Assembly (NCBI GenBank): GCA_963676425.1
Contig: OY781090.1
Span: forward strand, 1,324,277 to 1,388,276
From: Acholeplasmataceae bacterium
Lineage (GTDB): Bacteria > Bacillota_I > Bacilli_A > Acholeplasmatales > Acholeplasmataceae
Direction of reading: 5' to 3'
DNA length: 64,000 bases
Of the stretch, positions 6,096-54,760 are shown piece by piece (position 1 is the first letter of the stretch; every line of letters starts with the position of its first letter). The notes under the pieces are model-generated. The model saw only the letters and a list, made by a program, of their open reading frames with translations, was not told the DNA's origin and ran no database searches. The position numbers were made by a program, and so were the translations under genes.

Positions 6096-6107
6096 GTACT
6101 TTTTTTA
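6081..6107 (+). terminator. Rho-independent terminator between convergent yigZ and the CotH gene
   Basis: Hairpin GTACCTAT-ttt-ATAGGTAC (6081..6099) followed by TTTTTTT. It overlaps the yigZ stop codon. Confidence 0.55.
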
Positions 6108-7634
6108 TATCTCTTCAAACCTTCCTTGTTGGTATTCATTTGTCATAACTGCATCCGCCATCCAATTGACTCTATCTTCAATATATGATGATAAATACTC
6201 ATATTGTTTAAAAGCTGTATTAGCCTCTATCACTTCATTAGGATTTGGCCAAATTGATAAACCTAATCTGTGCCATACTTGTTCATCTTTAGATAGCATT
6301 AATTCTAACGATGTATAAAGTTCATGTATCTGATTTATATATGTATCTTTATCATTTAAATAAAATGATAGAAATCTCTCTTTAAACATATCTCTAATTT
6401 CTGGTATTTGCATCATCTTATTAAACCAAATATTTTTATCAGATCTAAGTCCATAAAAACCTACTGGTCCATAATCAATATAATCAGCATTACCATAAGC
6501 AAAATCAAAATCCCATAATGGTCCAAATGTTAATTTACCCGACTTATCTTTAAATAGATAAACACTACTGTACCAATTATCAACATTTTTAGTAATTTCT
6601 TGAACTATGAAATAATCTATCCATTGATTGATATCGACGTAATTTTGATATGTTCCTAGATCGAATGATTGGTATGCTTCACTCAAATAATTTTCAATAG
6701 CATCCCTATAATCTTTTGTAAATGTTAAATCTGTAGGATTTAAATCTTTAATCTCATAATATGTTTGATTCATTTCAATACACGCAAGCGTATCAATATT
6801 AGGATAATAATCCACATATCTCATATCAAGTTCTATAAAAAAACTTAAATCATTGATATCTGCATCAATTGTTAAATCTAATTTGTTATTTGTAACTTCT
6901 ACTTGTTCTGTTAAAACATAAACACCTAAATAAGCATCATTAATATATAGATCAACATATCTAGTTTCTAATGTATGTCTTAAATCAAAATATTTCGATA
7001 ATTGATGTGTCACTACATTTCTCATCAATGATGGATCTGCATATTCAGCTAATAACACATAATCTTTTGATTTAGGCATACCAAGTAATGATATACTTTC
7101 ATCAAATTTCAATCGATATGGCTTTTTAGGATAACTATACCAAGTAGAGTTCCCACGCCCTCTTATTTGGGCACTTGTATTATTTGTGATAAATTGTTGT
7201 TCACCATTTATTTCTGATATAAGTGAAGTTGTTACAGGTAAATATGTATCTCTATTAATATCATTTAAATCACTATCCATTTCAATAAATAAAAATGATT
7301 CATAATTTGCTAATGTGAGACTTAAAAGTTTTACTGTTTTTTTATCAGATGCTTTTGAAAAACCTTTTTCGACTACGACTTCTATTTCAATATCTTGATC
7401 AGTATCAGGACTTATAAATTCATAGACATCGACGTATGTTATATCATCAACAATAAAACTTATGCCATAGCCCTGTTTACTAGGGATAATATAATCACTA
7501 TTAATCTCATCTGGTATTAAATCAATAATTTCTAGTAATTTTTGATCGACGTCATTTTGATAAAATCCGATATCACAACTTGCTAAAATAAACGCCAAAA
7601 AAAGAATGATGAGGATTGGGCTCGTTTTTTTCAT
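6105..7634 (-). CDS. CotH kinase-family lipoprotein
   Basis: Signal plus lipobox MKKTSPILIILFLAFILASC. CotH-type segment IRGRGNSTWYSYPKKPYRLKFDESISLLGMPKSKDYVLLAEYADPSLMRN. SD GGGAGA lies 8 nt upstream of ATG 7634; the ORF-track 7649 is a TTG. Confidence 0.75.
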   Translation of the reverse strand: MKKTSPILIILFLAFILASCDIGFYQNDVDQKLLEIIDLIPDEINSDYIIPSKQGYGISFIVDDITYVDVYEFISPDTDQDIEIEVVVEKGFSKASDKKTVKLLSLTLANYESFLFIEMDSDLNDINRDTYLPVTTSLISEINGEQQFITNNTSAQIRGRGNSTWYSYPKKPYRLKFDESISLLGMPKSKDYVLLAEYADPSLMRNVVTHQLSKYFDLRHTLETRYVDLYINDAYLGVYVLTEQVEVTNNKLDLTIDADINDLSFFIELDMRYVDYYPNIDTLACIEMNQTYYEIKDLNPTDLTFTKDYRDAIENYLSEAYQSFDLGTYQNYVDINQWIDYFIVQEITKNVDNWYSSVYLFKDKSGKLTFGPLWDFDFAYGNADYIDYGPVGFYGLRSDKNIWFNKMMQIPEIRDMFKERFLSFYLNDKDTYINQIHELYTSLELMLSKDEQVWHRLGLSIWPNPNEVIEANTAFKQYEYLSSYIEDRVNWMADAVMTNEYQQGRFEEI

Positions 7635-7646
7635 GTATTTTTCTCC

Positions 7647-7676
7647 CAAAAAAAAGCATAGAAATGTCTATGCTTT
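7647..7676 (-). terminator. Rho-independent terminator ending the atp operon
   Basis: On the minus strand, stem AAGCATAGA-cattt-TCTATGCTT is followed by a T8 run. Confidence 0.65.
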
Positions 7677-15945: not shown

Positions 15946-15980
15946 TAAAAACAAAAAAAGGATAAATACTATTTATCCTC
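15946..15980 (-). terminator. Rho-independent terminator ending the RHS-LRR cassette
   Basis: 9-bp stem AGGATAAAT/ATTTATCCT (15959..15979) with a 3-nt loop, followed on the minus strand by TTTTTTTGTTTTT. Confidence 0.7.
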
Positions 15981-16112
15981 TTACTTTTAGTTTTACAATA
16001 TAATAAGCAGCTAATAATTATTTAATGAAAATCTATAATAAGTTATCTTGTTTCAAATTACTACTGATAGAAAAATCTCTTATAAATTATTCTAAATAAA
16101 CTTATCGAAAGA

Positions 16113-17075
16113 TTATGCATGATATATTCTTCTCCAAAAATCTATTTGATCATCTCCAAAATCTCTTGCCCCAAAAGGAAATGTTTCTAATCTAGGTTTT
16201 TTTCTTTGACCATCAACATCAACAAAGTAATGTTTTTTAATAGGATAAACAGACGATTTTTGAAGTCTCATCAACACATTTAAGTTACCATCAATTATTG
16301 TTGTACTTTCAATCTTACATGTTTTTAATTCATTCAAATTCTTTAAAAAATCTAAGTTATCTATCATTGGTCCATAACTCATCTCAAAATAAACTAGTTT
16401 GCTTAAATTGCTAATCACATGAAGATTTGTTATCTTTTTAGATAATATAATTTGTAAACTCTTAAGTGTATCCTTCATAGATACAAGACTTTGTATATCG
16501 CTTAAATACTTGTTTTCTCTTAATATGAGCCTCTGAATTTTCATACCTTCTAAAAAATTTAAATTAGTTATATCGGTATTGTGTATATAAAGTGTATCCA
16601 ATTGTGTTAAATGCTTAATTTGATCTAATATTGATAAATCCTTACCGGGAATGTAAAAGTTATAAATAAGCAGTGATTTAATTGACTTACAATCCTTTAA
16701 ATTTTTTACAATATTTTTAACATACAGACTAAAAGCTTCCAATTGTGTAAAAGCTGACATATCAATATCATATGTCATTTTATGACTTACACCTAAGAAT
16801 TTTAGTTTGTTTAATTTATGTAAAACCTCTTGATCAAAATATCCATCTATTTCCAAATATATAACATTATCAATTGATAGCATAAACCTCATGTCTTTAA
16901 TCGATTCTTTTGAATTGTCGAATAAAAATTTATCAATCTTATTTTTGTTAATATATTCTATGTCAATATGACTTAGCTCCTTATCGATATATAAAGCTTC
17001 TTTTGGTTCATGTAAATATCGAAATATAGTATTAAAAAGATACCCATCCTTTTCTAAACTACCAAAATTTATCAT
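16113..17075 (-). CDS. Leucine-rich repeat protein; candidate immunity protein for the upstream RHS toxin
   Basis: 320 aa with no signal peptide. It has repeated LxxLxLxxxxIxxLxxL units of about 22 aa (LTQLDTLYIHNTDITNLNFLEGMKIQRLILRENKYLSDIQSLV...). SD AAGGAG lies 8 nt upstream, and the start is 13 nt after the RHS stop. Confidence 0.85.
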   Translation of the reverse strand: MINFGSLEKDGYLFNTIFRYLHEPKEALYIDKELSHIDIEYINKNKIDKFLFDNSKESIKDMRFMLSIDNVIYLEIDGYFDQEVLHKLNKLKFLGVSHKMTYDIDMSAFTQLEAFSLYVKNIVKNLKDCKSIKSLLIYNFYIPGKDLSILDQIKHLTQLDTLYIHNTDITNLNFLEGMKIQRLILRENKYLSDIQSLVSMKDTLKSLQIILSKKITNLHVISNLSKLVYFEMSYGPMIDNLDFLKNLNELKTCKIESTTIIDGNLNVLMRLQKSSVYPIKKHYFVDVDGQRKKPRLETFPFGARDFGDDQIDFWRRIYHA

Positions 17076-17088
17076 TTAATTTCTCCTT

Positions 17089-20000
17089 TTAACTTCCATA
17101 AAGAGGATCCAAGTAATAATAAGACCCATGATCTTGCAAATAGAAATTTCTACCTGGTGACCAAATTTTATTTTTTAATTGAGATCCATCTGTACCAAAA
17201 CCATAATTACACATGATTATGTATTCCATTTTAAATGCCTCTCTTTCATTTTCCGCTGGCATCCATATAATTGCAACAGGAATAGTTGTATCTTCAACAG
17301 AGTGTCTTACTGCTGAAGCTATTACTCTTAGAATTCCACCTTTACCTACGTAAGATTCCCCATCAGCAAATGCAATTACATAAACTCCACTATTCTTGTT
17401 TTTTGGCTTTGTTATTGCTACTGCAATTGGAATTACTACACTATCAATCAATTCTTTTGCTTTATTGCGAATTGAAGACCCAATTTTTTCCAATGTTGAA
17501 GTAATATCATCACCTATATCTCGTATTGAGTCTGCAACACCGGATGCAAACCCACTATTTGGAGCTGCATCTGATATCTCTTGTGCTGCCTTGAGCATAA
17601 GTATTGTTGCTGCATAAACAACTATAGCAGCAATTCCTATTAATGCTAACGTAGCTAATGTTAGAGCTTCGTTACCACTTGGATCTATATTCATGATTGG
17701 ATTATTTACTGCATAAGCATATAAATTAATACTTGAAGATGCATCATCACTTATGTAATTAGCATCATCTATACTAATAAATCTTCCTATTTCAGGATCA
17801 TAATATCTAGCTTGTAGATAATAATATCCTGTTTCAGTGTCATATCGGTACCCTCGATATCTATACGGATTAATGTTTCCGATAAATATAGGTGATTGAT
17901 TTTCCACACCATTAGCAGCTACGACTCTTTGATTACCCCATGCATCATATGTATATGTTACCACTAATTGACCTGATTCATTCATCAGTCCAATCACATT
18001 ACCTAATAAGTCAAACACATAAAAATATTCACTGCCATTATAATTCATACTTAATAATTGATCATTGGCATCATATGTATAATATATTGGATTTCCATTA
18101 ATAAATTCTACAAGCACTAAATTTCCATCTAATACATATTCATATTCATATTCCTCTTCACCAATGGTAATTTTTTTAAATGTTCTAATACCTTCACTGT
18201 TGTATTTGTATTCGATGCTTTGTGTAATTGCACCATCATCATAAATATTGATACCATCAAGTCTTCTTCCACTCCAATTATAGTCTACAGAATGGATATC
18301 ATAATAATCTACTGTATCAAGTAGATTACCTAAATCATCAAAATCATAGTCTCTTTCAACAACCTGCCCTGTTTCATTATAAGCATCAATTTTAACCAAT
18401 TGTATACCATCATATGTCAATACTGTTTTATATGTATAAGGATCAAAATATTCACCTGTATTAACATCGTCTTCATCAATGATATCTTCTTGTGATTGAT
18501 GATAGTTGTATTTTGTTATTTTAATTAAGTTTCCTAAACCATCATATTTGTACGTATATGAATAATCGCTACTTCCTGTTAAATTGATATCTTCTCTAAT
18601 TAATTGATTTAAATTATCATAATGATAATCATATTGTTCAATAATTGTTGTCCCTTGTAGTTTTTTAATTTGAGTAATATTTTGATTACCATCATATTGA
18701 TATCTATATTTGAAATCTGTTGCACTTGAAAAATCATAAACGATTTCATAGATTCTTGTTGTTGCATTTCCTTGTTGAACTGAGATGTCACTATAATTAT
18801 ACATCATTGTTAATATATCATAATGATTGATTGACAGTGTTATTTCATCTAATCTTTTTAATGAGTCATTTGAATAATCATATGTTTTTTCGACATAATC
18901 ATTATTTGATATTAAATAAGATGTATAGTCATATTCTCCTGTAATGTCATTATAATGATACATGACTTCTCTTTCAACACCGCTCACATGATACTCATAT
19001 TCAGCTAAATTACCTTGCTCATCATATCGATAAAATATTTTATTATCTGATGCATCCGTAATTCTTTCTAATTTACCAGCTAAATCATATGAGTAATAAT
19101 AAGCATTATTGTTAACATGATCTAATACTGATCCCAGTCTTCCATTTGCGTCATATTCATATTCATACGATGGATTGCTTGTTTCATTGAAATATACACC
19201 AACTAGCATATCCTCATCGTTATATTTAAAATAATAGTAATCACCGTTACCATATGTTTTTCTTTCTAATAAATCAGTCACATATGATTCGGTTCCAATT
19301 TGATTTGGTTTAGTATAGTAATCATAATGTACAATAAGTTCATTATCAATATAAACATCTGTTAAATGATCAACATCATCATATGTAAATTCATAAGTCA
19401 CACCTGAAACAGTCAAGGTATTTAATCGATGCTCATCATCATAACCATATTCATATGTAACATCTGCACCAAAAGTTTTTTCTAACACTTGTCCAAGGTC
19501 ATTATAACTATAGGTCACTGAACCACCTTCATCATTAATGATTTCAGATAGTAATCCAGTATGTTCATTATACTCATAAGTTGTAACATTGCCAAATTCA
19601 TCAGTTTGTGTATGAATATATTGACTATTATATATATAGCTCGTTGATGTTTTAAACCACTTATCTTGTGTAGTTGAATCTTTGTCATAACCAATGTATT
19701 CATTTTCTACATGTTTGGTTGTTGGATTATATTCAACTGTGACTCTTACATTATTTTGTTCTATTGTTTCTACCATATTAGCATTGTTATAAGTGATATC
19801 AGTTGGTTGATCGTTAGTTTCAATACCTGTAAGGTTGCCATCACTATCATATGTATATGAAGTAATGGTGCCATCTTTGTTTTCTACTTCTGTCACATAA
19901 CCTGTAGACCCATCATAATCATATGCGGTTGCGACATTATCATGATACATTTGTATGTTATCAAAATATGCAGTCCCTTCACCTTGATATGCGCCATAAA

Positions 20001-23000
20001 CTTTTGCACTCACAACATCTACTGGCATTTCAAATGTTGTCATTTGATATTGCCAATCTTCAGTATTTGTATTAAATGGTAGATATACAAATTCATGATA
20101 TGTTACACCACCCTCTTCATCAGGTGCTATACATGTGAAGTCAATATATATACCAAAAAATCTATTATCGTCATAAATACTGTTTGTAGCATATGATTTA
20201 TGTGGCACAGCTGGGGCTTTACCCCAACCACCAATCATAAATGTTTCTCCAGCACTACTGGCTAAGCTATATACCTGTTGATAAAAATACTTCTCTGTAC
20301 TTCCATCTCCACTAATATACATTGAATATCTACCTAAGATATCGTCCATACCTGATGCATTGTTATTGGTTGTAATATAAGCATTACTTCTTGTCCATCC
20401 TGTTGTGCTATTTTCAAATCCACTATTAGACAACACATTATATCTAGATTCACTAAAACCTTCATAAAGTTGTATGTTATCAAAATAAGCTGTTGAAATG
20501 CTTTCATTACATAATTTCAATGTAACACTACGTGCTGTTGAAATGTAGAAATCAATTTTATATGATTTCCATGAATCACTATTAGATATTTGATCGTCTT
20601 CTTGATACGTCGCTGAAGTTGCATTTGATATTTCTAGAAACGCACCTTTACCATTAACTAAAGATCCATCATTTTTAATATATCCATACACTGTATAATA
20701 TCCAGGTTCTAAATAAAAATTTTGTGATGCATATGGATTTGATCCTGAGTTTGTAATAGCCATTGATCTTTGTCCAAAAACTGAATAATCCGAGCTGTAA
20801 GAGAAATGTCCTGTTGAATTTGCAGTTAACGTCCAACCTCCAGCATGCTCAAACCCATGATTACTCACTTGATTTTGTGTTTGTTTTAATACATCTGATT
20901 TCGTTAGTAATTTATGAACTAAAAAATAATTAGGATTTGCATTGATTATTTCTGAATAATTAAAATCATATTCGCTTAATCCAACATAAGTAAATAGTCC
21001 TGCATACTTAAAATATTGTGCATTACCCTTGTTATCTTGAATATTTATCGTATGTCCATAGTTATCAAATAAATATGTTGTATTGTTTCCTAAATCATCA
21101 CTATAAATAGTTTTTTGATGTGCATATTCAATATCAATATTGCTCACAGGTTGATTACTATCAGATAAATTTATTTGAGTTATTCTATCTAAGGTATCAG
21201 ATGTGTAAATGATTTTTTGTTCACTATTTTCAAGTTCAACACTAAAAAGTGAGTCATTACTATTATAGACATAATTAATTTTGTTTGAACTTGCATATCC
21301 TTGATTTGGATCCGGATCTGGATCTGGTTCATCTGGTGGTGTAATAATGATAATACCTGGTAATGCTTGGATTGAAACAATTTCTTCATCTAAACTATGA
21401 CTTAAAACTGTAGTTGCTAAATTATCATCATAATTTGAATATGAAATCAATGATGTTAATTCACTACTACTATTATATGTATATCTCTTATATTCTATTA
21501 ATTTATGTAACCCATTTTCTTGAACTAAATAAAGGTTTGATCTAATAAGTTTGTCACTATAGTAAGTAAGTGTAATCTTATTACCTACTGTATCAGTCAC
21601 TTGAGAGACTTTTAGTGTTGTCGTATCAACATATGAAACGACCAAAAAGTGACCATTCTTTGTATTGGTAATTCTTGTCAATCTTCCTAGATTACTACTT
21701 TCAAAGGTATATTTTATACCTTCTTGTGATTCTAAATTAAGATTGCCTTGCACATTGCCTTGATAAGTACTATACGTTAATGACATACCTGATCCATTTT
21801 CTGCTAACCAAGTATATTGATCGACACCAGAATAAACATTTTCAATTTGCATTAAAACAAAAAATATTTTTTCCCCATCTGGTTTTAGTAGATAATATTG
21901 ATCCAAATCATCATCATGTAATATTTGTTGATTATAACTTGTTTTCCAACCAATACCATACCCTTCATTACTTTGTGTAGATGAATATTCATGATTATAT
22001 ATCATATCTAATGATAGTGACATATATTCATTCTTTAATGCATAGTCATTTCTTACCCATGTAAGATGTCCTGTATAATCACTCACATATCCCTGCCCTG
22101 CTGGTCCTAAATCTTGAGAAGTATATGTCCAATAATCCTTTAAACCTTTAGGACTTTCATAACCAATCGTAATAACAGGATTATGACTGCCTGATGTTAC
22201 ATTTTGATAAACTGAATTAAAAGATCCATAGTTATCATCAAGTGCAATCGTAAATCCAGTTGTTCTTCTGACTCCTGTTGCTTGCCATTCTTTGACAGGC
22301 TTAGTAATATCAAACATAAATGGTGTGTTAGAATTAATCGTATAGTAATCAATCACTTTCGAACTGTAGCTAGGTGCATTGTTCCATGTAGCTGTACTAC
22401 TAGAAAAATTTTCATTATTTTTGTATATGTTTATTTGCCCACTTGTGGTTGTATGTTTATCAAATCCTAATTTGGCATATGTTATGGTTTGATCCATGAC
22501 CTCTGTTGGTAATGTAAAATACAGTAATCCCCTATACTCAGTTGTTGATGTCGTACCACTGACATACATATAACTTAAATTATAGTTTTTTGCATCAGGA
22601 TTAGCTTCTGAAATATATGTATCAAATATTGACATTGAAGTCGTTGTACTATTTAAGCTTGGATCAATTCTTACTGGATAACTAGCGTTCATTAACCAGT
22701 TTTCATCAGGTATCACTTTAAACGAATATTTGTTATTTGATATCTCTTTAATTTCATACGTGATATCAGATGAATAATTGTCAAGATTATCATACATAAC
22801 AAAAGGATCAAAACTAAATATAGCTTCTCCTTCTTCATTAACAAGCACTAATTGTCCATCAACTTCAATAAACGATAAGCCTTTGACTTTATACTCAAAT
22901 TCAAAAGACAAATCTTCTTGATATTTATTAACTATTATATCTTCTTTAATTTTAGAACCTTCTAACGTATACACTAAATCAATATCTTGCATGATATTTT

Positions 23001-23601
23001 TATATGTAACTTCTTGACTTATGTTTATTAGTTCTCTTAAATCTTGTTCGTTAACTTTCATCTTTTCGCTTGCGACAAGTACCTCTGATGACTTGCTACC
23101 TAAAAGATGCCAACTGATATCATATTTACCCATAGATAATTTAACATCAGATTTAGTTATATTTTTAGGAAATTGTATATCAAATTGATTAGATTTATTA
23201 TTGTATGTTTTAGTTTTTGTATCATAATCTAATCGATTATCTATATCTATCCAGTCATCGCCATCTTTATAGTGCACAGCACTATCGTAGATCGCAACTT
23301 CGTAACTTCCATCCTGTTTTCTAAAATGCTTTTCATTAAGTTGTCTTTTTGATGTGTCTTCCGATATAACAGGAATATCAGATGCATCTACATCTAGATT
23401 GTAGACTTGATCATCTACCTCTGTGATTTCTTCTGTTACTGGTTTTGTATCAGAAAACTCTTCTGCAATTGCCTGATATGGCACTAAACTTAAAAACATC
23501 GCAATCAATAATAAGATTGCCATGAATTTCTCGCGGTGTTTCATTCTAATGGTCATATTTCTGACTTCATCAGAACTAAACGGTGTAAACATTCGTTTCA
23601 T
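17089..23601 (-). CDS. RHS/YD-repeat polymorphic toxin precursor with Sec signal, DNRLRE-like domain, two jelly-roll CBM-like domains, YD shell and C-terminal toxin module
   Basis: Many YD repeats (YTYDSDGNL, YEYDANGRL, YRYDEQGNL, YKYDGLGNL, YTYDAWGN). RHS core end RYYDPEIGRFISIDD ... NPIMNIDPSGNE. SD GGAGGG lies 7 nt upstream of ATG 23601; the ORF-track start 23616 overlaps that SD. Confidence 0.93.
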   Translation of the reverse strand: MKRMFTPFSSDEVRNMTIRMKHREKFMAILLLIAMFLSLVPYQAIAEEFSDTKPVTEEITEVDDQVYNLDVDASDIPVISEDTSKRQLNEKHFRKQDGSYEVAIYDSAVHYKDGDDWIDIDNRLDYDTKTKTYNNKSNQFDIQFPKNITKSDVKLSMGKYDISWHLLGSKSSEVLVASEKMKVNEQDLRELINISQEVTYKNIMQDIDLVYTLEGSKIKEDIIVNKYQEDLSFEFEYKVKGLSFIEVDGQLVLVNEEGEAIFSFDPFVMYDNLDNYSSDITYEIKEISNNKYSFKVIPDENWLMNASYPVRIDPSLNSTTTSMSIFDTYISEANPDAKNYNLSYMYVSGTTSTTEYRGLLYFTLPTEVMDQTITYAKLGFDKHTTTSGQINIYKNNENFSSSTATWNNAPSYSSKVIDYYTINSNTPFMFDITKPVKEWQATGVRRTTGFTIALDDNYGSFNSVYQNVTSGSHNPVITIGYESPKGLKDYWTYTSQDLGPAGQGYVSDYTGHLTWVRNDYALKNEYMSLSLDMIYNHEYSSTQSNEGYGIGWKTSYNQQILHDDDLDQYYLLKPDGEKIFFVLMQIENVYSGVDQYTWLAENGSGMSLTYSTYQGNVQGNLNLESQEGIKYTFESSNLGRLTRITNTKNGHFLVVSYVDTTTLKVSQVTDTVGNKITLTYYSDKLIRSNLYLVQENGLHKLIEYKRYTYNSSSELTSLISYSNYDDNLATTVLSHSLDEEIVSIQALPGIIIITPPDEPDPDPDPNQGYASSNKINYVYNSNDSLFSVELENSEQKIIYTSDTLDRITQINLSDSNQPVSNIDIEYAHQKTIYSDDLGNNTTYLFDNYGHTINIQDNKGNAQYFKYAGLFTYVGLSEYDFNYSEIINANPNYFLVHKLLTKSDVLKQTQNQVSNHGFEHAGGWTLTANSTGHFSYSSDYSVFGQRSMAITNSGSNPYASQNFYLEPGYYTVYGYIKNDGSLVNGKGAFLEISNATSATYQEDDQISNSDSWKSYKIDFYISTARSVTLKLCNESISTAYFDNIQLYEGFSESRYNVLSNSGFENSTTGWTRSNAYITTNNNASGMDDILGRYSMYISGDGSTEKYFYQQVYSLASSAGETFMIGGWGKAPAVPHKSYATNSIYDDNRFFGIYIDFTCIAPDEEGGVTYHEFVYLPFNTNTEDWQYQMTTFEMPVDVVSAKVYGAYQGEGTAYFDNIQMYHDNVATAYDYDGSTGYVTEVENKDGTITSYTYDSDGNLTGIETNDQPTDITYNNANMVETIEQNNVRVTVEYNPTTKHVENEYIGYDKDSTTQDKWFKTSTSYIYNSQYIHTQTDEFGNVTTYEYNEHTGLLSEIINDEGGSVTYSYNDLGQVLEKTFGADVTYEYGYDDEHRLNTLTVSGVTYEFTYDDVDHLTDVYIDNELIVHYDYYTKPNQIGTESYVTDLLERKTYGNGDYYYFKYNDEDMLVGVYFNETSNPSYEYEYDANGRLGSVLDHVNNNAYYYSYDLAGKLERITDASDNKIFYRYDEQGNLAEYEYHVSGVEREVMYHYNDITGEYDYTSYLISNNDYVEKTYDYSNDSLKRLDEITLSINHYDILTMMYNYSDISVQQGNATTRIYEIVYDFSSATDFKYRYQYDGNQNITQIKKLQGTTIIEQYDYHYDNLNQLIREDINLTGSSDYSYTYKYDGLGNLIKITKYNYHQSQEDIIDEDDVNTGEYFDPYTYKTVLTYDGIQLVKIDAYNETGQVVERDYDFDDLGNLLDTVDYYDIHSVDYNWSGRRLDGINIYDDGAITQSIEYKYNSEGIRTFKKITIGEEEYEYEYVLDGNLVLVEFINGNPIYYTYDANDQLLSMNYNGSEYFYVFDLLGNVIGLMNESGQLVVTYTYDAWGNQRVVAANGVENQSPIFIGNINPYRYRGYRYDTETGYYYLQARYYDPEIGRFISIDDANYISDDASSSINLYAYAVNNPIMNIDPSGNEALTLATLALIGIAAIVVYAATILMLKAAQEISDAAPNSGFASGVADSIRDIGDDITSTLEKIGSSIRNKAKELIDSVVIPIAVAITKPKNKNSGVYVIAFADGESYVGKGGILRVIASAVRHSVEDTTIPVAIIWMPAENEREAFKMEYIIMCNYGFGTDGSQLKNKIWSPGRNFYLQDHGSYYYLDPLYGS
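17092..17667 (-). other. C-terminal toxin module of the RHS protein (hydrophobic helix plus GIY-YIG-like nuclease signature)
   Basis: 192 aa follow DPSGNE. A TM-like helix ALTLATLALIGIAAIVVYAATILML lies at 17593..17667. Then GVYVIAFADGESYVGKG ... AVRH ... ENEREAFKMEY ... LKNKI lies at about 17152..17388. Confidence 0.55.
19939..20869 (-). other. Tandem pair of CBM4_9-like (galactose-binding-like jelly-roll) domains in the RHS protein
   Basis: Two paralogous units: NHGFEHAGGWTL...STAYFDNIQLYE (20461..20869) and NSGFENSTTGWTR...GTAYFDNIQMYHD (19939..20434). Confidence 0.55.
22160..22650 (-). other. DNRLRE-like domain of the RHS protein
   Basis: SIFDTYISEANPDAKNYNLSYMYVSG...YRGLLYFTLP...AKLGF...WNNAP resembles the DNRLRE module seen at the N-termini of Firmicute wall-associated/RHS proteins. 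Boundaries are approximate. Confidence 0.5.
23464..23601 (-). other. Signal peptide region of the RHS protein
   Basis: Basic n-region, hydrophobic core MAILLLIAMFLSLVPY, AxA site QAIA|EE. Confidence 0.65.
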
Positions 23602-23750
23602 TATAATTCCCTCCATTTAATGAACATATTAAGTTGTGTATCGTCGATACCCCCATATGTATTATTCTAATAATAATATTAAATTCATAAAAAATCAAGA
23701 ACCTTTTATGTTTGGTTAGGGTATTTTAGAACAATTTTCATGCATTATAC

Positions 23751-23780
23751 AAAAAAGTATCACATACTAATATGTGATAC
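23751..23780 (-). terminator. Rho-independent terminator after typA
   Basis: 10-bp stem GTATCACATA/TATGTGATAC (23757..23780) with a 4-nt loop, followed on the minus strand by TTTTTT. Confidence 0.7.
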
Positions 23781-23807
23781 TTTTGATAAAAATCTATATA
23801 GTTGAAA

Positions 23808-25875: not shown

Positions 25876-26235
25876 TTACCACTCACGATAAGTATCAAAA
25901 TCAAAATCATCATATGACATATCATAAAGTGATAGTACTTGTTCAATATATTCATATATTGAGTCACGCTCTAATGTTTCAATTAAAGGATTTTCAAATT
26001 CAGTATTCAAACGATTCAAATCTATGATATAAGCTTTTGTGATTTCATATACTTCTTGAGTCGTTTCAACTAACATTACTTTTTCAATATAAAGATCTGT
26101 GATTTTGTTGAATTTTGCTAATGATTTGGGATCTAACTCATCCAACAAATCCTCATACAAATCATCTTCTAAATAATCCAACGGTTTCATTTCTAATAAT
26201 TGTTTAAGCTTGAGTTTTCTTGCCTTTGTTTCCAT
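25876..26235 (-). CDS. Small acidic hypothetical protein
   Basis: 119 aa from ATG 26235 (SD GGGGAG 7 nt upstream). I recognised no motif. Confidence 0.5.
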   Translation of the reverse strand: METKARKLKLKQLLEMKPLDYLEDDLYEDLLDELDPKSLAKFNKITDLYIEKVMLVETTQEVYEITKAYIIDLNRLNTEFENPLIETLERDSIYEYIEQVLSLYDMSYDDFDFDTYREW

Positions 26236-26315
26236 GTAAAATCTCCCCATTTTTTTTATCACTGATTTTTTTATGTTGACTATTTATAAAGATTATACTA
26301 CAAAAATACAGTATT

Positions 26316-30991: not shown

Positions 30992-31921
30992 TTAGTAATT
31001 AATTTCATATATATCTAAGAGTTTCTTATATTTATCTTGTCCAAATAAACAAGTATCTATTAAGTATCCTCTTTCATCTAAATATTTACTTAATCCTCTA
31101 TAATATAAAGCTTTTATAGCGTCATCAATTGTAAAAGGTACGAGCCCATGTCTTAGACATTCTTTAAATGCAATGAGTCTTCCTACTCTACCATTACCAT
31201 CTTGAAATGGATGTATACATTCAAATTGATAATGGAAATCAATAATATCTTCAAAAGTATATGTTTTTTTATTTTCATATATACCAATTAAAGAAGCCAT
31301 TTTACTTTGAACTTCACTTGGTTTAGCTGTTTCAATACCACCAACTGTATTAATTCTTCTTTTATATTCACCCACATTAAACCAATCAAGTTTTGAATCA
31401 CTTGTATTTGATTTTAAAATCTTATGAATATCTTTAATAAGATTTTCAGTCACAGGTTCTAATGCTGACTTGATCATATAGTCTATACATCTAAAATGAT
31501 TTTGTGTCTCAATAACATCATCTATATTAATTGTTGTATCTTGATCAATTCCTATCGTATTTGTTTCAAAAATGTATCTCGTTTGATCTGCAGTCAATTT
31601 ACTACCTTCAATATGATTTGAATTATATGTTAGAAGAATTTGTGTCTCGTGATAAATACTGCCTTTAATTTTATGTGTCATTTCTTCTTTTAGTCTCAAC
31701 AATAATTCTGAAGAATTATCTACTGTAATAAATTCAACGACATCGTTTAAAGTAACATTCAAATATTTACATATTGCCTCTAATGTCTGTAGTGACACAT
31801 ATTCACCTTTTTTAAATTTAGCCTGTGTAGCAGAAGAAATATTAAGATCTTGCATCATTTGTGAGAGTGTTATGTTTCGTTTATTTAAAACATTATATAA
31901 TCCTCTAAAATTCATACTCAT
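30992..31921 (-). CDS. XRE-type HTH domain fused to a Fic (AMPylase family) domain
   Basis: N-terminal HTH (ITLSQMMQDLNISSATQAKFKKGE). Fic motif HPFQDGNGRVGR at 31178..31213. Inhibitory-helix motif SNHIEG (S-x-x-x-E-G) at 31604..31621. Confidence 0.88.
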   Translation of the reverse strand: MSMNFRGLYNVLNKRNITLSQMMQDLNISSATQAKFKKGEYVSLQTLEAICKYLNVTLNDVVEFITVDNSSELLLRLKEEMTHKIKGSIYHETQILLTYNSNHIEGSKLTADQTRYIFETNTIGIDQDTTINIDDVIETQNHFRCIDYMIKSALEPVTENLIKDIHKILKSNTSDSKLDWFNVGEYKRRINTVGGIETAKPSEVQSKMASLIGIYENKKTYTFEDIIDFHYQFECIHPFQDGNGRVGRLIAFKECLRHGLVPFTIDDAIKALYYRGLSKYLDERGYLIDTCLFGQDKYKKLLDIYEINY

Positions 31922-33414: not shown

Positions 33415-33858
33415 CTACTTTTCTATAACTTTTACTTCGAATTGCGCCTTAATATCTTTGTGTAATGATACAAATGCTGTATATATACCAATAGAGTTGA
33501 TTTCACTTTGCAATTCTAGTTTTTTCTTATCTATTAGTATACCATGAGTTTCTTGAAATGCTTCAGCAATTTGTTTAGTTGTGATACTTCCAAATTGTTT
33601 ACCATCTTTACCCACTTGTATTTGTAATACAACTTGTTTACCATCAATTTCAGATTTAAGTTTTTTCATTAAATCTAAATGACGTTGTTCAGCTTCTTTT
33701 TGTTTTTGTTTTTCAGCCTCTAAACTAGATAAATTATCATCACTTGCGAGTACTGCTTTCTTTTGATTTAGTAAGAATTGACCATATCCGTTTGCAACTT
33801 CAATAATCTCATCTTTCTTACCTTTACCTTTAACATCAGTTGTTAAAATTACTTTCAT
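33415..33858 (-). CDS. rplI: Ribosomal protein L9 (internal in-frame start within the gdpP ORF)
   Basis: MKVILTTDVKGKGKKDEIIEVANGYGQFL is a canonical L9 N-terminus. SD GGTGGAGG lies 8 nt upstream of ATG 33856..33858. 147 aa. Confidence 0.85.
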   Translation of the reverse strand: MKVILTTDVKGKGKKDEIIEVANGYGQFLLNQKKAVLASDDNLSSLEAEKQKQKEAEQRHLDLMKKLKSEIDGKQVVLQIQVGKDGKQFGSITTKQIAEAFQETHGILIDKKKLELQSEINSIGIYTAFVSLHKDIKAQFEVKVIEK

Positions 33859-35847
33859 CTTTTCGCCTCCACCATATTCCATTTCTACATACATACGTAA
33901 AGATTCATAAACTTCACGAATTGATGTATCTTTAATTTGAGCAGCAGCACTATTAAAGTGTCCACCACCACCGATCATTTCCATTAATATTTGAACATTG
34001 ATATCATGAATACTTCTTGCTGATACGGCAACCGTATGGTCATCCATTCTCGCAATTGTAAATGCTGCATCAATACCATTAATCTCTAATGCTGCATCTG
34101 ATACTTGAGCAAGTAATACTCTATCTTCATAAATATCAGATGTTACAATAAATGCAAATTTGTTTAACACTATTTCTACTTGGTCTAATAAGTTATTAAT
34201 TTCCATAATACGCATCATATCACGTCTTAACCACGTTTTAACTAAAGTAGCATCTGCACCCAATTCTTTTAGTCTAGATGCGACTTCAAATGTTCTTGAT
34301 GATGTTCTAAATAAGAAATTAGATGTGTCTACAATTAAACCACCATACATGATTGATGCTTCAATTGGAGATATCTTAGTTTCTTCTTCTATATTATAAA
34401 AACCAATGAGATCCATCATAAGTTCTATCGTTGAACTTGCTGATGGTTCGATAATTGAGAATATCGCATTGAATCTTTCTTCACCAGCTCTATGGTGATC
34501 AATAACGATGACGTTTTCTGTTTTTTCTAATAATTGCGGTACCATCACCATTTTTGGAGATTGTGAATCAACAACAATTAATAAACTTTGTTCTTTAATA
34601 TTTTCTAAAGCTTGAAGTCCTGTAACTACTTCTTCATCAATATCACTTAATTGATCTTTAACTGCTTCATATACTTTAGTCACTGTAGGATCTAACTTAT
34701 CTTTATCAACAACGATATAAGCTTTCTTCTTTGAAGCCCTTGTCATATGATAACAAGCTAGTGCAGATCCAAAAGCATCCATATCAGACATGTGATGACC
34801 CATGATATATACATCTGCAGCTTTTTCAATAAAATCTTTGATTGTTTGTGCATTAATTCTAACACCAACTCTTGAGTTCTTAATAGAGGCATCAGATTTC
34901 GCACCAAAGTACATAATTTTTTGATCTTGAATATTAACTACAACTTGATCTCCACCGCGTTTTTCGGCTAAATCTACAGCATTTTGAGCATAAACACCAA
35001 TTTCTTCATATGAGATATCCCAAGAAGCGATACCCATTGATATTGATACTCTAACTTTTTCTTCTGCTGAGATTTTTCTAATCTTATCTAATAGACTAAA
35101 TTTATTTTCAATCATTAAATTTAAGTTTTTACGATCAGTTACTAGTAAAATCTTTTCATCTGCGAACGGTTTAACATAACAATCAAAGTCAGCTGCCCAA
35201 TCATTGATAGCTGCTAAATAATCACCTTTAATCATTGATTGTTCTGAAACATCTAGAACTGATAATGCTTCATCTAAGTTATCTAAGAAAACTAAAGCTA
35301 AAGCTGGAATTTGTTCTTGATATTTTTGGAACACTCTTTCTCTTTGTGTTGCTTCAAATAAATAGAAGAAACGATATTCTGGACGATAGGTAACATCATA
35401 ATACTTATCATCTTTTTCTATAATAAAATTCATTTTACTATGTGTGACTAAATCATACATACGTTCATGAATATCTTCTAATTTTTTACCATTAACCTTA
35501 TGTCCAAATATTGTTTGGGCATGAGGGTTTGTCCATTTAATTTCAAAATTCTCATCGACTGCTATCATGCCAATTGGTAATTCATTAAATATCTCATCAC
35601 CGGCTTGTGAAATATGATAAGAAAGTTTAGACCACATTTGTAATCTATTTTGCAATGTTGATATCTTTTGATGTGATCGTTGATTAAGTAGAATAAACAT
35701 ACCTACAAATAATAAGACATTCGCAAAAAAAATCACGATAAACGCAATCAATTCACGTGATGATTCAAAACCTAAATAAGGTAGATATAAAATTATCCCA
35801 ACGCCAGCAAATACTGCTGCTAATGCTAAAAATATCCAACGTTTCAT
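33415..35847 (-). CDS. gdpP: GdpP-type c-di-AMP phosphodiesterase (2 TM, PAS, degenerate GGDEF, DHH/DHHA1) with no stop codon before rplI, giving an 810-aa GdpP-L9 fusion ORF
   Basis: Two N-terminal TM helices; LPIGMIAVDENFEIKWTNPHA (PAS-like); HHMSDMDAFGS, VIDHHR (DHH); GGGHFNSAAAQ (DHHA1). The junction reads ...YVEMEYGGGEK-MKVILTT with no stop codon. Confidence 0.85.
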   Translation of the reverse strand: MKRWIFLALAAVFAGVGIILYLPYLGFESSRELIAFIVIFFANVLLFVGMFILLNQRSHQKISTLQNRLQMWSKLSYHISQAGDEIFNELPIGMIAVDENFEIKWTNPHAQTIFGHKVNGKKLEDIHERMYDLVTHSKMNFIIEKDDKYYDVTYRPEYRFFYLFEATQRERVFQKYQEQIPALALVFLDNLDEALSVLDVSEQSMIKGDYLAAINDWAADFDCYVKPFADEKILLVTDRKNLNLMIENKFSLLDKIRKISAEEKVRVSISMGIASWDISYEEIGVYAQNAVDLAEKRGGDQVVVNIQDQKIMYFGAKSDASIKNSRVGVRINAQTIKDFIEKAADVYIMGHHMSDMDAFGSALACYHMTRASKKKAYIVVDKDKLDPTVTKVYEAVKDQLSDIDEEVVTGLQALENIKEQSLLIVVDSQSPKMVMVPQLLEKTENVIVIDHHRAGEERFNAIFSIIEPSASSTIELMMDLIGFYNIEEETKISPIEASIMYGGLIVDTSNFLFRTSSRTFEVASRLKELGADATLVKTWLRRDMMRIMEINNLLDQVEIVLNKFAFIVTSDIYEDRVLLAQVSDAALEINGIDAAFTIARMDDHTVAVSARSIHDINVQILMEMIGGGGHFNSAAAQIKDTSIREVYESLRMYVEMEYGGGEKMKVILTTDVKGKGKKDEIIEVANGYGQFLLNQKKAVLASDDNLSSLEAEKQKQKEAEQRHLDLMKKLKSEIDGKQVVLQIQVGKDGKQFGSITTKQIAEAFQETHGILIDKKKLELQSEINSIGIYTAFVSLHKDIKAQFEVKVIEK

Positions 35848-40171: not shown

Positions 40172-41356
<1,185 letters not shown>

Positions 41357-41411
41357 TGTAATATTTCCTCCTAATTTATAAGAAATTAATTATTTTTTAT
41401 TTACCATATTT

Positions 41412-41440
41412 ATTCTATATGAATTTATGATTTTTTGCAA
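41412..41440 (-). promoter_or_regulatory. Candidate internal promoter for tuf
   Basis: Minus strand TTGCAA-17 nt-TAGAAT in the fusA-tuf spacer. Confidence 0.4.
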
Positions 41441-41449
41441 GTAAGTGGA

Positions 41450-43522
41450 TTAATTAGACCCACGTTTTTTAATGATTTCTTCCATGATTGATTTTGGAGT
41501 CTTATCATAGTGAGCAAATTGCATTACGAAGTTCGCACGTCCTTGTGTGTTTGAACGTAATGATGTAGCGTAACCAAACATTTCTGATAGTGGTACGTAT
41601 GCTCTAATTGCTACTGCGTTACCGCGTCCTTCTTGAGATTCAAGACGTCCACGACGTGATGTAATATCACCGATAACGTTACCTACATAGTCGTTTGGAG
41701 TTACAACTTCAACGTCCATGATTGGTTCTAATAATACTGGGCTTGCCTTAGTCTTAGTGTCTTTAAGCGCCATTGATGCAGCGATCTTATAAGCCATTTC
41801 AGATGAATCGACATCATGGTATGAACCGAATTTAAGTGTAGCTTTTAAATCGATTACTGGGTAACCAGCTAAAATACCATTTGGAAGAGCTTCTTCTAAC
41901 CCTTTTTGTACTGATGGAATGTATTCTCTAGGAATTACCCCACCAACAATTTTATCAACGAATTCAAAACCTTTACCTGGGTTTGGTTCGAAATCAATCA
42001 CAACGTGACCATATTGTCCACGACCACCTGATTGACGAACAAACTTAGCTTCGATTTCAGCAGCTTCACTGATTGTTTCTCTATAAGAAACTTGAGGTTC
42101 AGCAACGTTTGCTTCAACTTTGAATTCACGTTTCATACGGTCAACGATGATATCTAAGTGTAACTCACCCATACCAGCGATGATTGTTTGTCCTGTTTCA
42201 TGATCAGTAAACGTTCTAAATGTTGGATCTTCTTCAGCTAATTTAACTAAAGCAGCACTCATCTTGTCTTGATCTTGTTTTGTTTTAGGTTCGATAGCAA
42301 CGTTAATAACTGGTTCAGGGAATACCATTGATTCTAAGATGATATCATCTCCAACCATAGCTAATGTATCACCAGTAGTTGTGTTCTTTAAACCTACAAC
42401 AGCAGCGATGTCCCCAGCGTAGATATCTTGGATTTCTTCACGAGTATTCGCGTGCATTTGAAGGATACGTCCGAAACGTTCTTTTGTATCTTTGTTAGTG
42501 TTCATAACATATGAACCTGCAGAGATTTTACCTGAGTAAACACGGAAGAATGTTAAGCGACCTACATAAGGGTCAGTCATAACTTTGAACGCTAATGCTG
42601 TAAATGGTTCATCATCGTCAGCATGACGTTGGATTTCATTACCGTCTGAATCTTCACCAGTGATCGCTAATACGTCAGTTGGTGCAGGTAAGTAATCTAT
42701 TACTGCATCTAATAGTAATTTAACACCTTTGTTTTTAAATGCTGTACCACAGATAACTGGGAAGAATTTAACATCAAGTGTTGCTTTACGCATAGTTTCT
42801 TTTAAATCTTCAACTGCGATTTCTTCACCTTCTAAGTAAGCCATCATAATGTCTTCATTAAAATCAGCTAATGCTTCAACTAATTCAACACGTTTTTCTT
42901 CAACGATGTCTACTAAGTGACTTGGAATTTCGATTTCAGTTGCGATTTCTTCAGCGTTACCATCGAAATGATAAGCTTTTCTTGTTAATAAATCAATAAC
43001 ACCATCAAATTCTGCTTCCGCACCAATTGGCCATTGGATAGGAACAGCTTTAACACCTAAACGGTTGTGGATTGATTTGATTGCTTTTGCAAAGTCAGCA
43101 CCAATTTTATCCATTTTATTAATGAATACAATTCTTGGTACTTTATACTCTGTAGCTTGACGCCACACAGTTTCAGTTTGAGGTTCAACACCGGCTTGCG
43201 CATCTAGAACTGTTACTGCACCATCAAGAACACGCAGTGAGCGTGATACTTCAACTGTGAAGTCTACGTGACCTGGAGTATCAATAATGTTTACTTTATG
43301 ATCTTTCCAGAATGCTGTAGTCGCAGCAGAAGTGATCGTAATACCACGTTCCTGTTCTTGGGCCATCCAGTCCATTGTTGCCGCACCTTCGTGAACTTCA
43401 CCGATTTTATGAATTCTACCAGTGTGGAAAAGAATTCTTTCTGTAGTCGTTGTTTTACCAGCATCGATGTGAGCCATGATACCAATATTACGAACTTTGT
43501 TTAACGGATATACACGAGGCAT
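41450..43522 (-). CDS. fusA: Elongation factor G
   Basis: [29 protein letters not shown]; 690 aa. Confidence 0.99.
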
Positions 43523-43540
43523 AATTTAGTTCTCCTTCTT

Positions 43541-44011
43541 TTACCAACGGTAGTGTGCGAATGCTTTATTAGCTTCAGCCATTCTATGCACATCTTCACG
43601 TTTCTTAACAGCAGCACCTGTACCATTTGCTGCATCCATAATCTCTTTAGCTAATCTTTCTTCCATAGTCTTTTCATTTCTAAGTCTAGCGTAGTTGATT
43701 AACCATCTTAAGCCTAAAGTTTGTCTACGAGAAGCTCTAACTTCTACTGGTACTTGGTAGTTTTGACCACCAATACGTCTAGAACGAACTTCGATAACTG
43801 GCATAATATTATTTAATGCTTCGTTAAATACTTCAATTGGTTCTCTTCCTGTTACTTCTTTAACACGGTTGAATGAACCATATAAAATACTTTGAGCAGT
43901 TCCTTTTTTACCATCGATCATAATTGTGTTAACGATTCTAGTTACTAATTTTGATTGGTAAATTGGATCAGGTAAAACATCGCGTTTTACGATATGTCCT
44001 TTACGTGGCAT
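43541..44011 (-). CDS. rpsG: Ribosomal protein S7
   Basis: MPRKG...DPIY...; 156 aa; str operon position. Confidence 0.97.
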
Positions 44012-44066
44012 ATTTTCACCTTTCCTTTCATTTCAGATTTTTATCTTTTAGGTTATTGTTTGTTTA

Positions 44067-44486
44067 TTATTTTTTTGCTTTTGGGCGTTTAGCACCATAT
44101 TTTGATCTTGCTTGTTGACGGTTAGCAACACCAGAAGCATCTAGTGTACCACGTACGATATGATAACGTACCCCTGGAAGGTCTTTAACACGTCCACCAC
44201 GAATTAACACGACACTATGTTCTTGAAGTGAATGTCCAATCCCTGGGATGTATGCTGTTACTTCAGTTTGATTACTTAATCTTACTCTGGCATACTTACG
44301 TAAAGCTGAGTTAGGTTTTTTAGGTGTCATTGTTGTAACACGAGTACATACTCCACGTTTTTGTGGTGATGCATAAACACTTTCAGATTTTTGTAAACTG
44401 TTATAACCGTATCCAAGTGCAGGTGACTTTGATTTGTATTTTTTGTCAGTTCTTCCTTTTTTTACAAGTTGTTGCATTGTAGGCAT
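44067..44486 (-). CDS. rpsL: Ribosomal protein S12
   Basis: [17 protein letters not shown] and [14 protein letters not shown]; 139 aa. Confidence 0.98.
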
Positions 44487-54659: not shown

Positions 54660-54731
54660 TATTTGTTCCCCCAACATATTTTATATTAGTTATATTATAT
54701 CAAACGCATATCATTATTTCCATAGTCAATA

Positions 54732-54760
54732 AATAAAAAAGACATGCTTTCGCATGTCTT
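54732..54760 (-). terminator. Rho-independent terminator after rpoC
   Basis: Stem AAGACATGC/GCATGTCTT (54739..54760) with loop TTTC, followed on the minus strand by TTTTTTATTT. Confidence 0.75.

Follow-up and report, generated by a model that had tools for sequence, protein, structure and literature searches.

We analysed a 64,000-nucleotide stretch of an Acholeplasmataceae chromosome (the whole of this stretch is called the window below), in which a ~7.8-kb cassette of two genes lies between the terminator of typA and the promoter of rpiB. The first gene encodes an RHS/YD-repeat protein, and the second a 320-residue protein with similarity to leucine-rich-repeat (LRR) proteins. We consider it likely that the two form a Sec-exported, WapA-like Rhs toxin-immunity module placed in the typA-rpiB spacer of an Acholeplasmataceae species. 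The features of the cassette are given below in the order of transcription; protein positions (aa) follow a 2175-aa numbering, which counts the open reading frame (ORF) back to position 23616.

23747..23784, reverse strand: intrinsic terminator of typA, at the upstream edge of the cassette; 14-bp hairpin and T-run (-15.2 kcal/mol, z -4.5 by RNA folding).
23670..23698, reverse strand: weak, putative promoter-like element TTGATT-17-TATTAT upstream of the RHS gene (9/12 match).
17089..23601, reverse strand: predicted RHS/YD-repeat polymorphic toxin gene; 2170 aa from the ATG at 23601, in an uninterrupted ORF open back to 23616 (2175 aa).
23464..23601, reverse strand: predicted N-terminal export signal, Sec/signal peptidase I-like; basic n-region, hydrophobic core FMAILLLIAMFLSLVPY, then QAIA and, after the predicted cleavage point, EE.
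22660..23181, reverse strand: DUF7948 (aa ~146-319; PF25778, 34.4 bits, cutoff 27).
22165..22623, reverse strand: DNRLRE domain, a beta-sandwich (aa 332-484; NF033679, 67.7 bits, cutoff 34).
21859..22080, reverse strand: DUF6531-like region ahead of the YD shell (aa 513-586; PF20148, 20.3 bits, below the cutoff of 24.1).
20014..20439, reverse strand: CBM_4_9-like insert (aa ~1060-1201; PF02018, E 7e-4, 20.3 bits, below cutoff).
17950..19911, reverse strand: distal YD/RHS repeat array, the predicted shell (YD repeats up to aa 1889; PF05593 and TIGR01643).
17674..17949, reverse strand: RHS repeat-associated core (RYYDPEIGRF...NNPIMNIDPSG; aa 1890-1981), the point at which homologues diverge.
17584..17667, reverse strand: hydrophobic helix ALTLATLALIGIAAIVVYAATILMLKAA right after the core motif (aa 1984-2011; Kyte-Doolittle hydropathy (KD) 2.64).
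17431-17583, reverse strand: helical linker of ~65 aa (helices in a low-confidence model).
17092..17388, reverse strand: C-terminal toxin domain, a candidate divergent GIY-YIG/URI-fold nuclease (G-x-Y ... Y-V-G-K-G ... R ... E-Y ... N-K-I-W-S-P-G-R).
16113..17075, reverse strand: putative cognate immunity gene, LRR-like, 320 aa, 13 nt past the toxin TAA and with its own AAGGAG Shine-Dalgarno sequence.
15949..15982, reverse strand: cassette terminator; hairpin and T-run (-10.4 kcal/mol, z -2.2 by RNA folding).

The layout agrees with an initial annotation of this DNA, made from the letters alone, in most respects. The RHS gene of about 2170 codons is indeed uninterrupted, and 23601 (MKRMF...) is the better start, because GGAGGG lies just upstream and the product is identical to a 2170-aa public-database protein (P0003). 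The second gene has the spacer and the Shine-Dalgarno sequence ascribed to it, and both hairpins said to bracket the pair fold and are followed by T-runs, although neither was picked up by a G+C-biased terminator scanner. A private promoter had also been proposed. The TTGATT-17-TATTAT element exists at 23698..23670, but in DNA as rich in A+T as this, 9/12 matches to the promoter hexamers occur no more often than by chance (65 against 74 expected from shuffles), so the element alone is no evidence of a promoter, and we rejected the hexamers as evidence. The rpiB promoter, TATGTTATAAT, follows the cassette terminator, and its -10 box is kept in five other loci (L001, L002, L003, L005 and L084).

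The assignment of the long protein to the RHS class is firm. All three models with which the initial annotation had proposed to check it scored above their cutoffs: TIGR03696 Rhs_assc_core (74.3 bits, cutoff 32.5; aa 1890-1981), TIGR01643 YD repeat (48.7 bits, cutoff 15.8) and PF05593 RHS_repeat (80.9 bits on the protein, cutoff 22, and 91.4 bits with 7 repeats in the distal segment). The motifs quoted from it earlier, RYYDPEIGRFISIDD and NNPIMNIDPSGNE, are both in the protein. YD repeats are present, but their number, given as dozens, was loose; we counted 18 with the pattern [YF]x[YF]D, and Pfam recognised 7 clean ones, in the distal half. Likewise, the RHS core is followed by a C-terminal module as reported, but the tail past ...NNPIMNIDPSG measures 194 aa (aa 1982-2175) instead of 192. 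It consists, in order, of the hydrophobic helix, the linker and a ~100-aa domain.

Only two hydrophobic segments were found in the RHS protein, the post-core helix and an N-terminal one (aa 28-52, KD 2.18), a feature shared by most homologues. The latter is predicted to be a Sec-type signal peptide, though it could instead be an uncleaved signal anchor; delivery by Sec only, as proposed before, would follow from this hydrophobic N-terminus with its AxA site. Several of the modules ahead of the distal YD array recur among homologues. The DNRLRE region is CBM96-like in homologues, which carry PF24517; DUF6531 (PF20148) is recorded in several; and PF02018 is recorded in P0006, P0010, P0018 and others. 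The CBM_4_9-like insert is the second of two similar ...GFE..GW...YFDNIQ(L/M)Y modules and possibly has a role in receptor binding. Neither cell-wall-binding families nor PAAR, VgrG, VgrG-binding or LXG modules are among the Pfam and NCBIfam matches of the RHS protein, and a lipobox and an LPXTG motif are absent from it.

To what extent is the tail polymorphic? A search of the RHS protein against 5.8 billion proteins gave 78 matches at E<=1e-20 (P0003-P0080). The best ~40 are full-length (~2000-2100 aa) and 36-60% identical, and the named ones among them all come from Mycoplasmatota-type lineages: Acholeplasmataceae metagenome-assembled genomes (MAGs), Acholeplasma manati, Liberiplasma polymorphum, Izemoplasma B36, Tenericutes HGW-6, 'Ca. 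Izimaplasma HR2' (as 'WapA precursor'), Haloplasmataceae ('wapA1') and a 'Ca. Phytoplasma sp.' MAG. In every homologue with a locatable core motif (~55/78) the bodies align and the tails are unrelated from NNPxxxxDPxG on. These tails include an AHH nuclease (P0015) and a canonical PF01541 GIY-YIG domain (P0019). The closest homologue, P0004 (60%), lies at another locus and differs in its tail as well as in the gene next downstream, which encodes 205 aa. The tail thus varies among relatives, which excludes the reading that the initial annotation had set against its own, a structural adhesin with an invariant C-terminus; the shared body and the unrelated tails, together with the core and repeat models, bear out its call of an RHS polymorphic toxin. 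At the P0004 locus itself (L081 8796-15922, ERZ21878193 ctg13474c) the gene is split into ORFs of 388 aa (with DUF7948) and 1760 aa and lies ~5 kb downstream of an insertion sequence (IS) transposase (rve); its tail is glycine-rich and hydrophobic, and the 205-aa gene next to it is unrelated.

The homologues span Acholeplasmatales, Izemoplasmatales and Haloplasmatales, and several are already annotated as RHS, WapA or DNRLRE proteins. The initial annotation knew of no characterised Rhs system in Mollicutes. None was found in the literature we searched, but with ~40 full-length homologues, several of them already machine-annotated, the class is not rare in these lineages. Tenericutes had been listed earlier among the phyla with several toxin domains, including Tox-ART-RSE, a BECR-fold RNase, and with LRR-repeat immunity (Zhang et al. 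2012, PMC3482391). The post-core helix is also a recurrent element. A hydrophobic 19-mer within 60 aa past DPxG is present in 28/34 close homologues and in 9/20 distant ones (Fisher p = 0.007); it occurs in most homologues whatever toxin domain comes next, and it is found outside Mollicutes too. We found no description of a transmembrane-like 19-mer after the Rhs autoproteolysis motif in Zhang et al. 2012 (PMC3482391).

We then asked what accompanies the tail rather than the body. The 320-aa protein encoded next to it shows LxxLxLxxN-like motifs and scores with LRR models below their cutoffs (LRR_14, 18.7 bits against a cutoff of 40; LRR_4, 19 bits against 27), and its homologues bear PF12799 or PF23952, weak to faint. 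It has no hydrophobic segment and is therefore taken to be cytoplasmic. Using a tail-family profile (alignment A2), we gathered 73 metagenome loci (L088-L160), 69 of which have an ORF next downstream. In 64 of these 69, near-duplicates among human-gut assemblies included, that ORF matches the LRR-family model, mostly at E 1e-40 to 1e-111, and is 280-341 aa long. The pairing spans widely different hosts. A Clostridia-like contig with dockerin genes (L082) encodes an RHS body only 27% identical, followed by the same tail family and then by a 327-aa LRR homologue (E 9e-8), and in three further loci (L083, L085 and L086) the tail family lies immediately 5' of LRR homologues. Since an LRR homologue follows the tail in 64/69 loci, the two families make a cognate toxin-immunity pair, and this supports the view, drawn from gene order, that the 320-aa protein behaves as the cognate immunity to the tail domain. 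A metagenome scan with the LRR protein as the query gave no relatives.

The pair of a GIY-YIG-like tail and a ~320-aa LRR protein is common in the human-gut contigs that make up most of L088-L160, and it is there that the toxin-LRR pair is most abundant. In these loci a full-length LRR gene often comes after a short orphan C-terminal (CT) ORF (70-120 aa), a pattern which suggests that orphan immunity/CT cassettes may be widespread in gut Firmicutes. One locus (L083 1-1864, Logan SRR15311598) is an orphan array, which opens with the end of an RHS gene whose tail is another one and continues with a 170-aa gene, an orphan GIY-YIG-like tail and the start of an LRR gene; the orphan tail copy begins within the core motif (TPVIYIDPSG).

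A sister genome shows the same site without the toxin. Contig L084 (ENA ERZ21831032:contig_41) bears a protein, P0232, that is 89% identical to the 320-aa LRR-like protein, and it is collinear with the window (TypA 98% identical at the amino acid level). Its positions 1-1688 align to window 25425-23738 at 95% nucleotide identity, homology stops at 23738, and from its position 2328 on it aligns to the window from 17172 on (85-92%, blastn). The difference between the two genomes is as follows:

17173..23737, reverse strand: segment present here and replaced in L084; 6,565 nt, between blastn breakpoints 23738 and 17172.

This segment holds the upstream region and the whole RHS gene minus its last 28 codons. 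Between the breakpoints L084 has 639 nt of unrelated DNA with a 145-aa ORF, for which searches of the window, of 80 related loci and of Pfam gave no match. What is left of the toxin is its last 84 nt, which read KKIWSPGRGYYR, stop, DHGSYDYLDPLYGS, stop, and so contain a premature stop; an intact LRR gene and rpiB follow. Between the window and L084 the LRR gene has a ratio of non-synonymous to synonymous substitution (dN/dS) of 0.24 with a dS of 0.21, compared with dN/dS values of 0.05 for typA, 0.09 for rpiB and 0.03 for upp. Judged by these ratios, the LRR gene evolves faster than housekeeping genes yet is clearly under purifying selection. The alignment indicates that the sister genome has deleted the toxin gene and still keeps an orphan immunity gene, which would be expected were the toxin still in circulation in the population. 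Polymorphic toxin theory predicts that a toxin can be lost while its immunity stays, and such loss is also variability of the kind that the initial annotation had looked for. The identification of the adjacent gene as the immunity gene likewise gains from it, the LRR gene being both the regular partner of the tail and kept under purifying selection where the toxin is gone.

The tail domain was analysed by sequence searches and by structure prediction. The last 197 aa have no match in Pfam or NCBIfam, and a word-index search returned two homologues only; the domain has no match at E<=1 to PF01541, PF15653 Tox-URI2 or PF19835, and a profile of the CT family found zero matches among PDB sequences. 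When 1.84 billion cluster representatives were searched exhaustively with a profile, a family of 627 emerged at E<=1e-3, of which 165 reach E<=1e-10. In all of these proteins (61-2769 aa) the domain forms the extreme C-terminus, and in many it comes after an RHS core or after what is presumably a PT-TG-like pre-toxin region. In a 38-sequence alignment (A3), Y17, G29, K30, G31, R35, A65, N87, S91, P92 and G93 are invariant, and G15, Y27, S39, A40, F66, E69, Y70 and Y86 are at least 90% conserved. A Pfam scan of these 38 members gave chance-level matches only, besides two to SegE_GIY-YIG.

An AlphaFold2 model of the domain alone, built from the 38-sequence alignment, reached a pLDDT of 92.1 and shows a beta-beta-alpha-beta-alpha core (strands 15-21 and 26-30, helix 33-47, strand 51-58, helix 62-75), whereas a model of the whole 197-aa tail from a 3-sequence alignment was unusable (pLDDT 50). 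The best Foldseek match of the domain model in the PDB is the GIY-YIG domain of UvrC (1yd6_B; probability 0.99, TM score normalised to the target 0.55, E 0.07, root-mean-square deviation 2.7 A over 74 columns). Next comes BH0048, which is labelled UPF0213 and which we take to be a GIY-YIG family protein. Against BFVD (predicted viral structures), the named top matches are mostly GIY-YIG homing endonucleases, phage enzymes among them (probability 0.99-1.0, E 2e-3 to 1e-2). The conserved residues are spaced as Y-(10)-YxG-(5)-R...E...N, which we assume to resemble the catalytic spacing of UvrC and I-TevI. The same spacing is that of the published Tox-URI1 signature of RHS-borne URI nucleases, 'Y, YxG, R, [RK]xxE, N' (Zhang et al. 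2012, PMC3482391). The model thus makes the tail domain a candidate divergent nuclease of the GIY-YIG fold; we keep it outside PF01541 because sequence-level links to curated GIY-YIG models fail.

The surroundings of the cassette identify it as the only extra DNA in a conserved block. It is flanked by prfA, prmC, tsaC, a 128-aa ORF and typA on one side, and by rpiB, upp and atpB/E/F on the other. In ~40 Acholeplasmataceae genomes the order is prmC-tsaC-typA-rpiB-upp-atpB, with typA and rpiB adjacent, ~70-200 nt apart, and neither an RHS nor an LRR gene between them. The initial annotation had described the cassette and typA as lying between tsaC and rpiB. Because typA stands directly beside rpiB in these ~40 relatives, it is native to the block, and we rejected it as part of the insert. 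The proposed variability of the cassette itself is confirmed by its lack in those spacers and by the partial deletion in L084. A mobile element was considered as the vehicle and rejected: no integrase or transposase is nearby, and the G+C content of the cassette (29.4%) is near the window mean (31.7%). No flanking repeats were evident on reading both junctions, where no repeat search was run. Scans of the window for tRNAs and Rfam families found nothing.

The host was placed by searching its TypA against 185,579 species genomes. The closest sequences are those of JBFWMH010000007 (89%), 'Mycoplasmatota bacterium zrk7' (85%) and 'Tenericutes bacterium MO-XQ' (81%), followed by Peloplasma aerotolerans (78%) and by Acholeplasma laidlawii and A. 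granularum (66-69%). The nearest relatives are thus Acholeplasmataceae MAGs and isolates, with free-living sediment and lake MAGs among them, and the Acholeplasma-like identity assigned earlier to the host is upheld by the best match. Cultured members of the Acholeplasmataceae are cell-wall-less (PMC11122141), and it is a reasonable inference from taxonomy, rather than from the content of the window, that this host is too. The absence of wall-binding repeats from the RHS protein agrees with such a host. Elsewhere, the part of the window that was scanned consists of core chromosome, with dnaB, ssb, rplI and gdpP among its genes. In line with the initial annotation, no family of the type VI or type VII secretion systems (T6SS, T7SS) was found among the ~40 window ORFs scanned, with the ORFs at 40172-44486, 54315-62785 and others, presumed to be housekeeping, left out of the scan; the large ORFs at 40172-44486 and 54774-62785 are presumed to be tuf, fusA and rpoBC.

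Several further features of this neighbourhood were noted. The 128-aa ORF (25876-26262, reverse strand) matches DUF5713 just above the cutoff (27.9 bits) and lies within a 685-nt tsaC-typA spacer, which in most related Acholeplasmataceae loci is ~90-280 nt and in none has a tblastn match to the ORF; the ORF resembles another small insertion, specific to the lineage, close to the cassette. In Tenericutes bacterium HGW-Tenericutes-2 an RHS-repeat match (L013 1209-1895; 42%, 162 bits) lies ~7 kb upstream of prmC, which shows that rhs genes take different sites near the conserved prmC block. An 810-aa ORF (33415-35847, reverse strand) combines GdpP domains (PAS, GGDEF-like, DHH and DHHA1) with both L9 domains (aa 664-808); gdpP and rplI are in one frame with no intervening stop, and this is either a true fusion or a case of an internal rplI start. 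Amid housekeeping genes, a protein with HTH_26 and Fic/DOC domains (30992-31921, reverse strand) may be a toxin-antitoxin-type or AMPylation regulator. A CotH kinase-family protein (6105-7649, reverse strand; 143.8 bits), found here in a non-sporulating lineage, is kept in L084 (12335-13183).

In the pathway that we propose for the cassette, the 2170-aa protein would be exported via its N-terminal signal, and the YD repeats, by analogy with solved Rhs and Tc structures, would form a shell around the last 194 residues. Aspartyl autoproteolysis at the RHS core motif (...DPSG), the predicted boundary to judge from what is known of the family, would free the tail. Binding to the target surface may be the task of the DUF7948, DNRLRE and CBM-like beta-sandwich modules, and the post-core hydrophobic helix is a candidate for membrane entry. 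Once delivered, the GIY-YIG/URI-fold domain is predicted to act as a metal-dependent nuclease that kills the neighbouring cell, while in producers and their kin the 320-aa LRR-like protein would bind and block it. A bolder form of this proposal, speculative and on balance unlikely, is that free-living wall-less Bacilli (Acholeplasmatales, Izemoplasmatales and Haloplasmatales) have their own clade of Sec-exported Rhs toxins, devoid of wall-binding domains and with a transmembrane-type helix right behind the autoproteolysis site. The shell would then chaperone a self-inserting helix that takes the nuclease across the single, unprotected membrane of another wall-less cell. If true, this would amount to a receptor-light, contact-dependent or diffusible competition among Mollicutes, so far undescribed.

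A number of points weigh against the proposal. Toxicity and nuclease activity, like autoproteolysis, export and neutralisation, are predictions, and both a wall-less bacterial target and contact-dependent delivery are putative. The GIY-YIG call comes from a predicted structure whose Foldseek E-values are modest (2e-3 to 7e-2); the domain has no Pfam GIY-YIG or Tox-URI2 match, only 2/38 members touch SegE_GIY-YIG (E=0.05), and hhalign against the canonical GIY-YIG tail of P0019 gave no match (prob 0.2). The LRR assignment of the 320-aa protein falls under the Pfam cutoffs, and with the near-duplicates the independent cases of its pairing are fewer than 64/69.

Alternative explanations were therefore considered for delivery, for the activity of the tail and for the function of the protein as a whole. 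The same toxin and immunity protein could work as a soluble, bacteriocin-like particle that is released: without a wall and with a cleavable AxA signal, the shell would diffuse and bind targets by its CBM-like modules. The signal peptidase I-like site, the absence of lipobox, LPXTG and wall-binding domain alike, and the position of the sole other hydrophobic segment inside the cargo all suit release. However, an uncleaved signal would be a type II anchor, as in teneurins, and the characterised Gram-positive WapA systems work by contact, so that we regard release as possible but somewhat doubtful. It is rather unlikely, in our estimate, that the tail has the GIY-YIG fold without being a DNase, acting instead as an RNase or tRNase, or as a non-catalytic binder, on some other lethal target. 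The missing sequence-level match to canonical models would agree with this, as would the replacement of the EREAF stretch in P0052 and the extra invariant NKIWSPGR and K in YxGKG, which lie outside the classical GIY-YIG signature; but the set of Y, Y, G, R, E and N and its spacing are conserved, and nearly all fold matches are DNA endonucleases.

Some RHS/YD proteins are anti-eukaryotic, and many Acholeplasmataceae are associated with animals or plants (PMC11122141), so the protein might be aimed at a eukaryotic host or prey in the manner of Tc proteins or teneurins, including insecticidal ones. Yet a linked cytoplasmic immunity gene, orphan immunity in the sister genome and hypervariable tails are the signature of inter-bacterial conflict, and the closest relatives are free-living sediment and lake MAGs; we judge such a target very improbable. 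The least credible reading, with hardly any chance of being right, is that the protein is no toxin but a structural adhesin or surface protein, or that it is a relic in decay and without function. The large N-terminal beta-sandwich and CBM-like modules might be expected of an adhesin, and the split gene of P0004 beside an IS element of a relic, but here the ORF is unbroken over 6.5 kb, residues of the catalytic type are conserved, the tails are polymorphic and the cognate immunity gene is under purifying selection. A toxin-immunity module that acts between bacteria thus remains the interpretation that we favour.

What is new here is modest, and there are three parts to it: a pair of genomes showing toxin loss with immunity retention at one defined site of the chromosome of an Acholeplasmataceae species; an uncurated family of predicted GIY-YIG-fold toxins (the 627 representatives) with a dedicated LRR-like immunity partner; and an Rhs clade without wall-binding modules that is widespread in free-living wall-less Bacilli. 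Wall-less Acholeplasma-type bacteria, in other words, carry and turn over Rhs toxin-immunity modules, and the comparison of L084 with the window suggests that strains are still in conflict in this group, on whose competitive biology there has been hardly any work. The pairing of this toxin with a ~320-aa LRR protein is absent from the 2012 catalogue of polymorphic toxins and is a candidate addition to annotation resources. With only one membrane and no wall in the target, such systems could also serve as a simple model of the passage of Rhs cargo through a lipid bilayer.

Each part of the module has a counterpart in known systems. The 3' toxin remnant and kept immunity gene of L084, and the orphan CT and LRR array of L083, recall the orphan rhs-CT/immunity pairs and C-terminal displacement of Enterobacteriaceae (PMC2935791, PMC3967940); unlike the displacement described there, in L084 the whole toxin body was deleted or replaced, and the old tail was not displaced by a new one. 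With the T6SS Rhs effectors (RhsA, Tse5, Tse15, TseI and Tre23) and the TcB/TcC cocoons the protein shares a YD shell, an unfolded or hydrophobic cargo and release by aspartyl autoproteolysis, features which here are predicted from sequence. Tse5 likewise has a hydrophobic cargo (PMC10684867). In contrast to the T6SS effectors, the cassette protein has no PAAR, VgrG-binding or prePAAR module, and no T6SS genes are among the scanned window ORFs; and in contrast to both groups the host lineage is monoderm and wall-less.

The predicted fold of the tail and its C-terminal place in an RHS protein are those of Tox-URI1 and Tox-URI2, and its Y, YxG, R, ...E, N residues are the published Tox-URI1 signature (PMC3482391). 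It differs from both in having no Pfam GIY-YIG or Tox-URI2 match, in its added invariant NKIWSPGR, and in its partner, the partners listed for them being Imm9, 12, 14, 26, 39, 44 and 51, with LRR not among them (PMC3482391). LRR-type cytoplasmic proteins adjoining polymorphic toxins are known as Imm-LRR, a class reported for firmicutes and tenericutes (PMC3482391). There, however, they stand beside toxins of the type V secretion system (T5SS) and in poly-immunity loci (PMC3482391), whereas here a ~320-aa family with sub-cutoff Pfam LRR scores is matched nearly one-to-one to a single family of toxin domains.

A close parallel is WapA of Bacillus subtilis and Streptococcus suis, which likewise has a signal peptide instead of PAAR/VgrG or LXG, a long YD body, an RHS core, a variable C-terminal nuclease-type toxin, an immunity gene directly downstream and no dedicated secretion genes nearby. 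Unlike WapA, the cassette protein has no detected cell-wall-binding repeats and carries DUF7948, DNRLRE and CBM-like modules at its N-terminus; its toxin is a GIY-YIG-fold candidate instead of a tRNase, a hydrophobic helix follows the core, and the immunity protein is LRR-like. Sec-dependent WapA-like Rhs toxin-immunity modules are already known as a kind, and the basic picture of Rhs systems is unchanged by the addition of this one.

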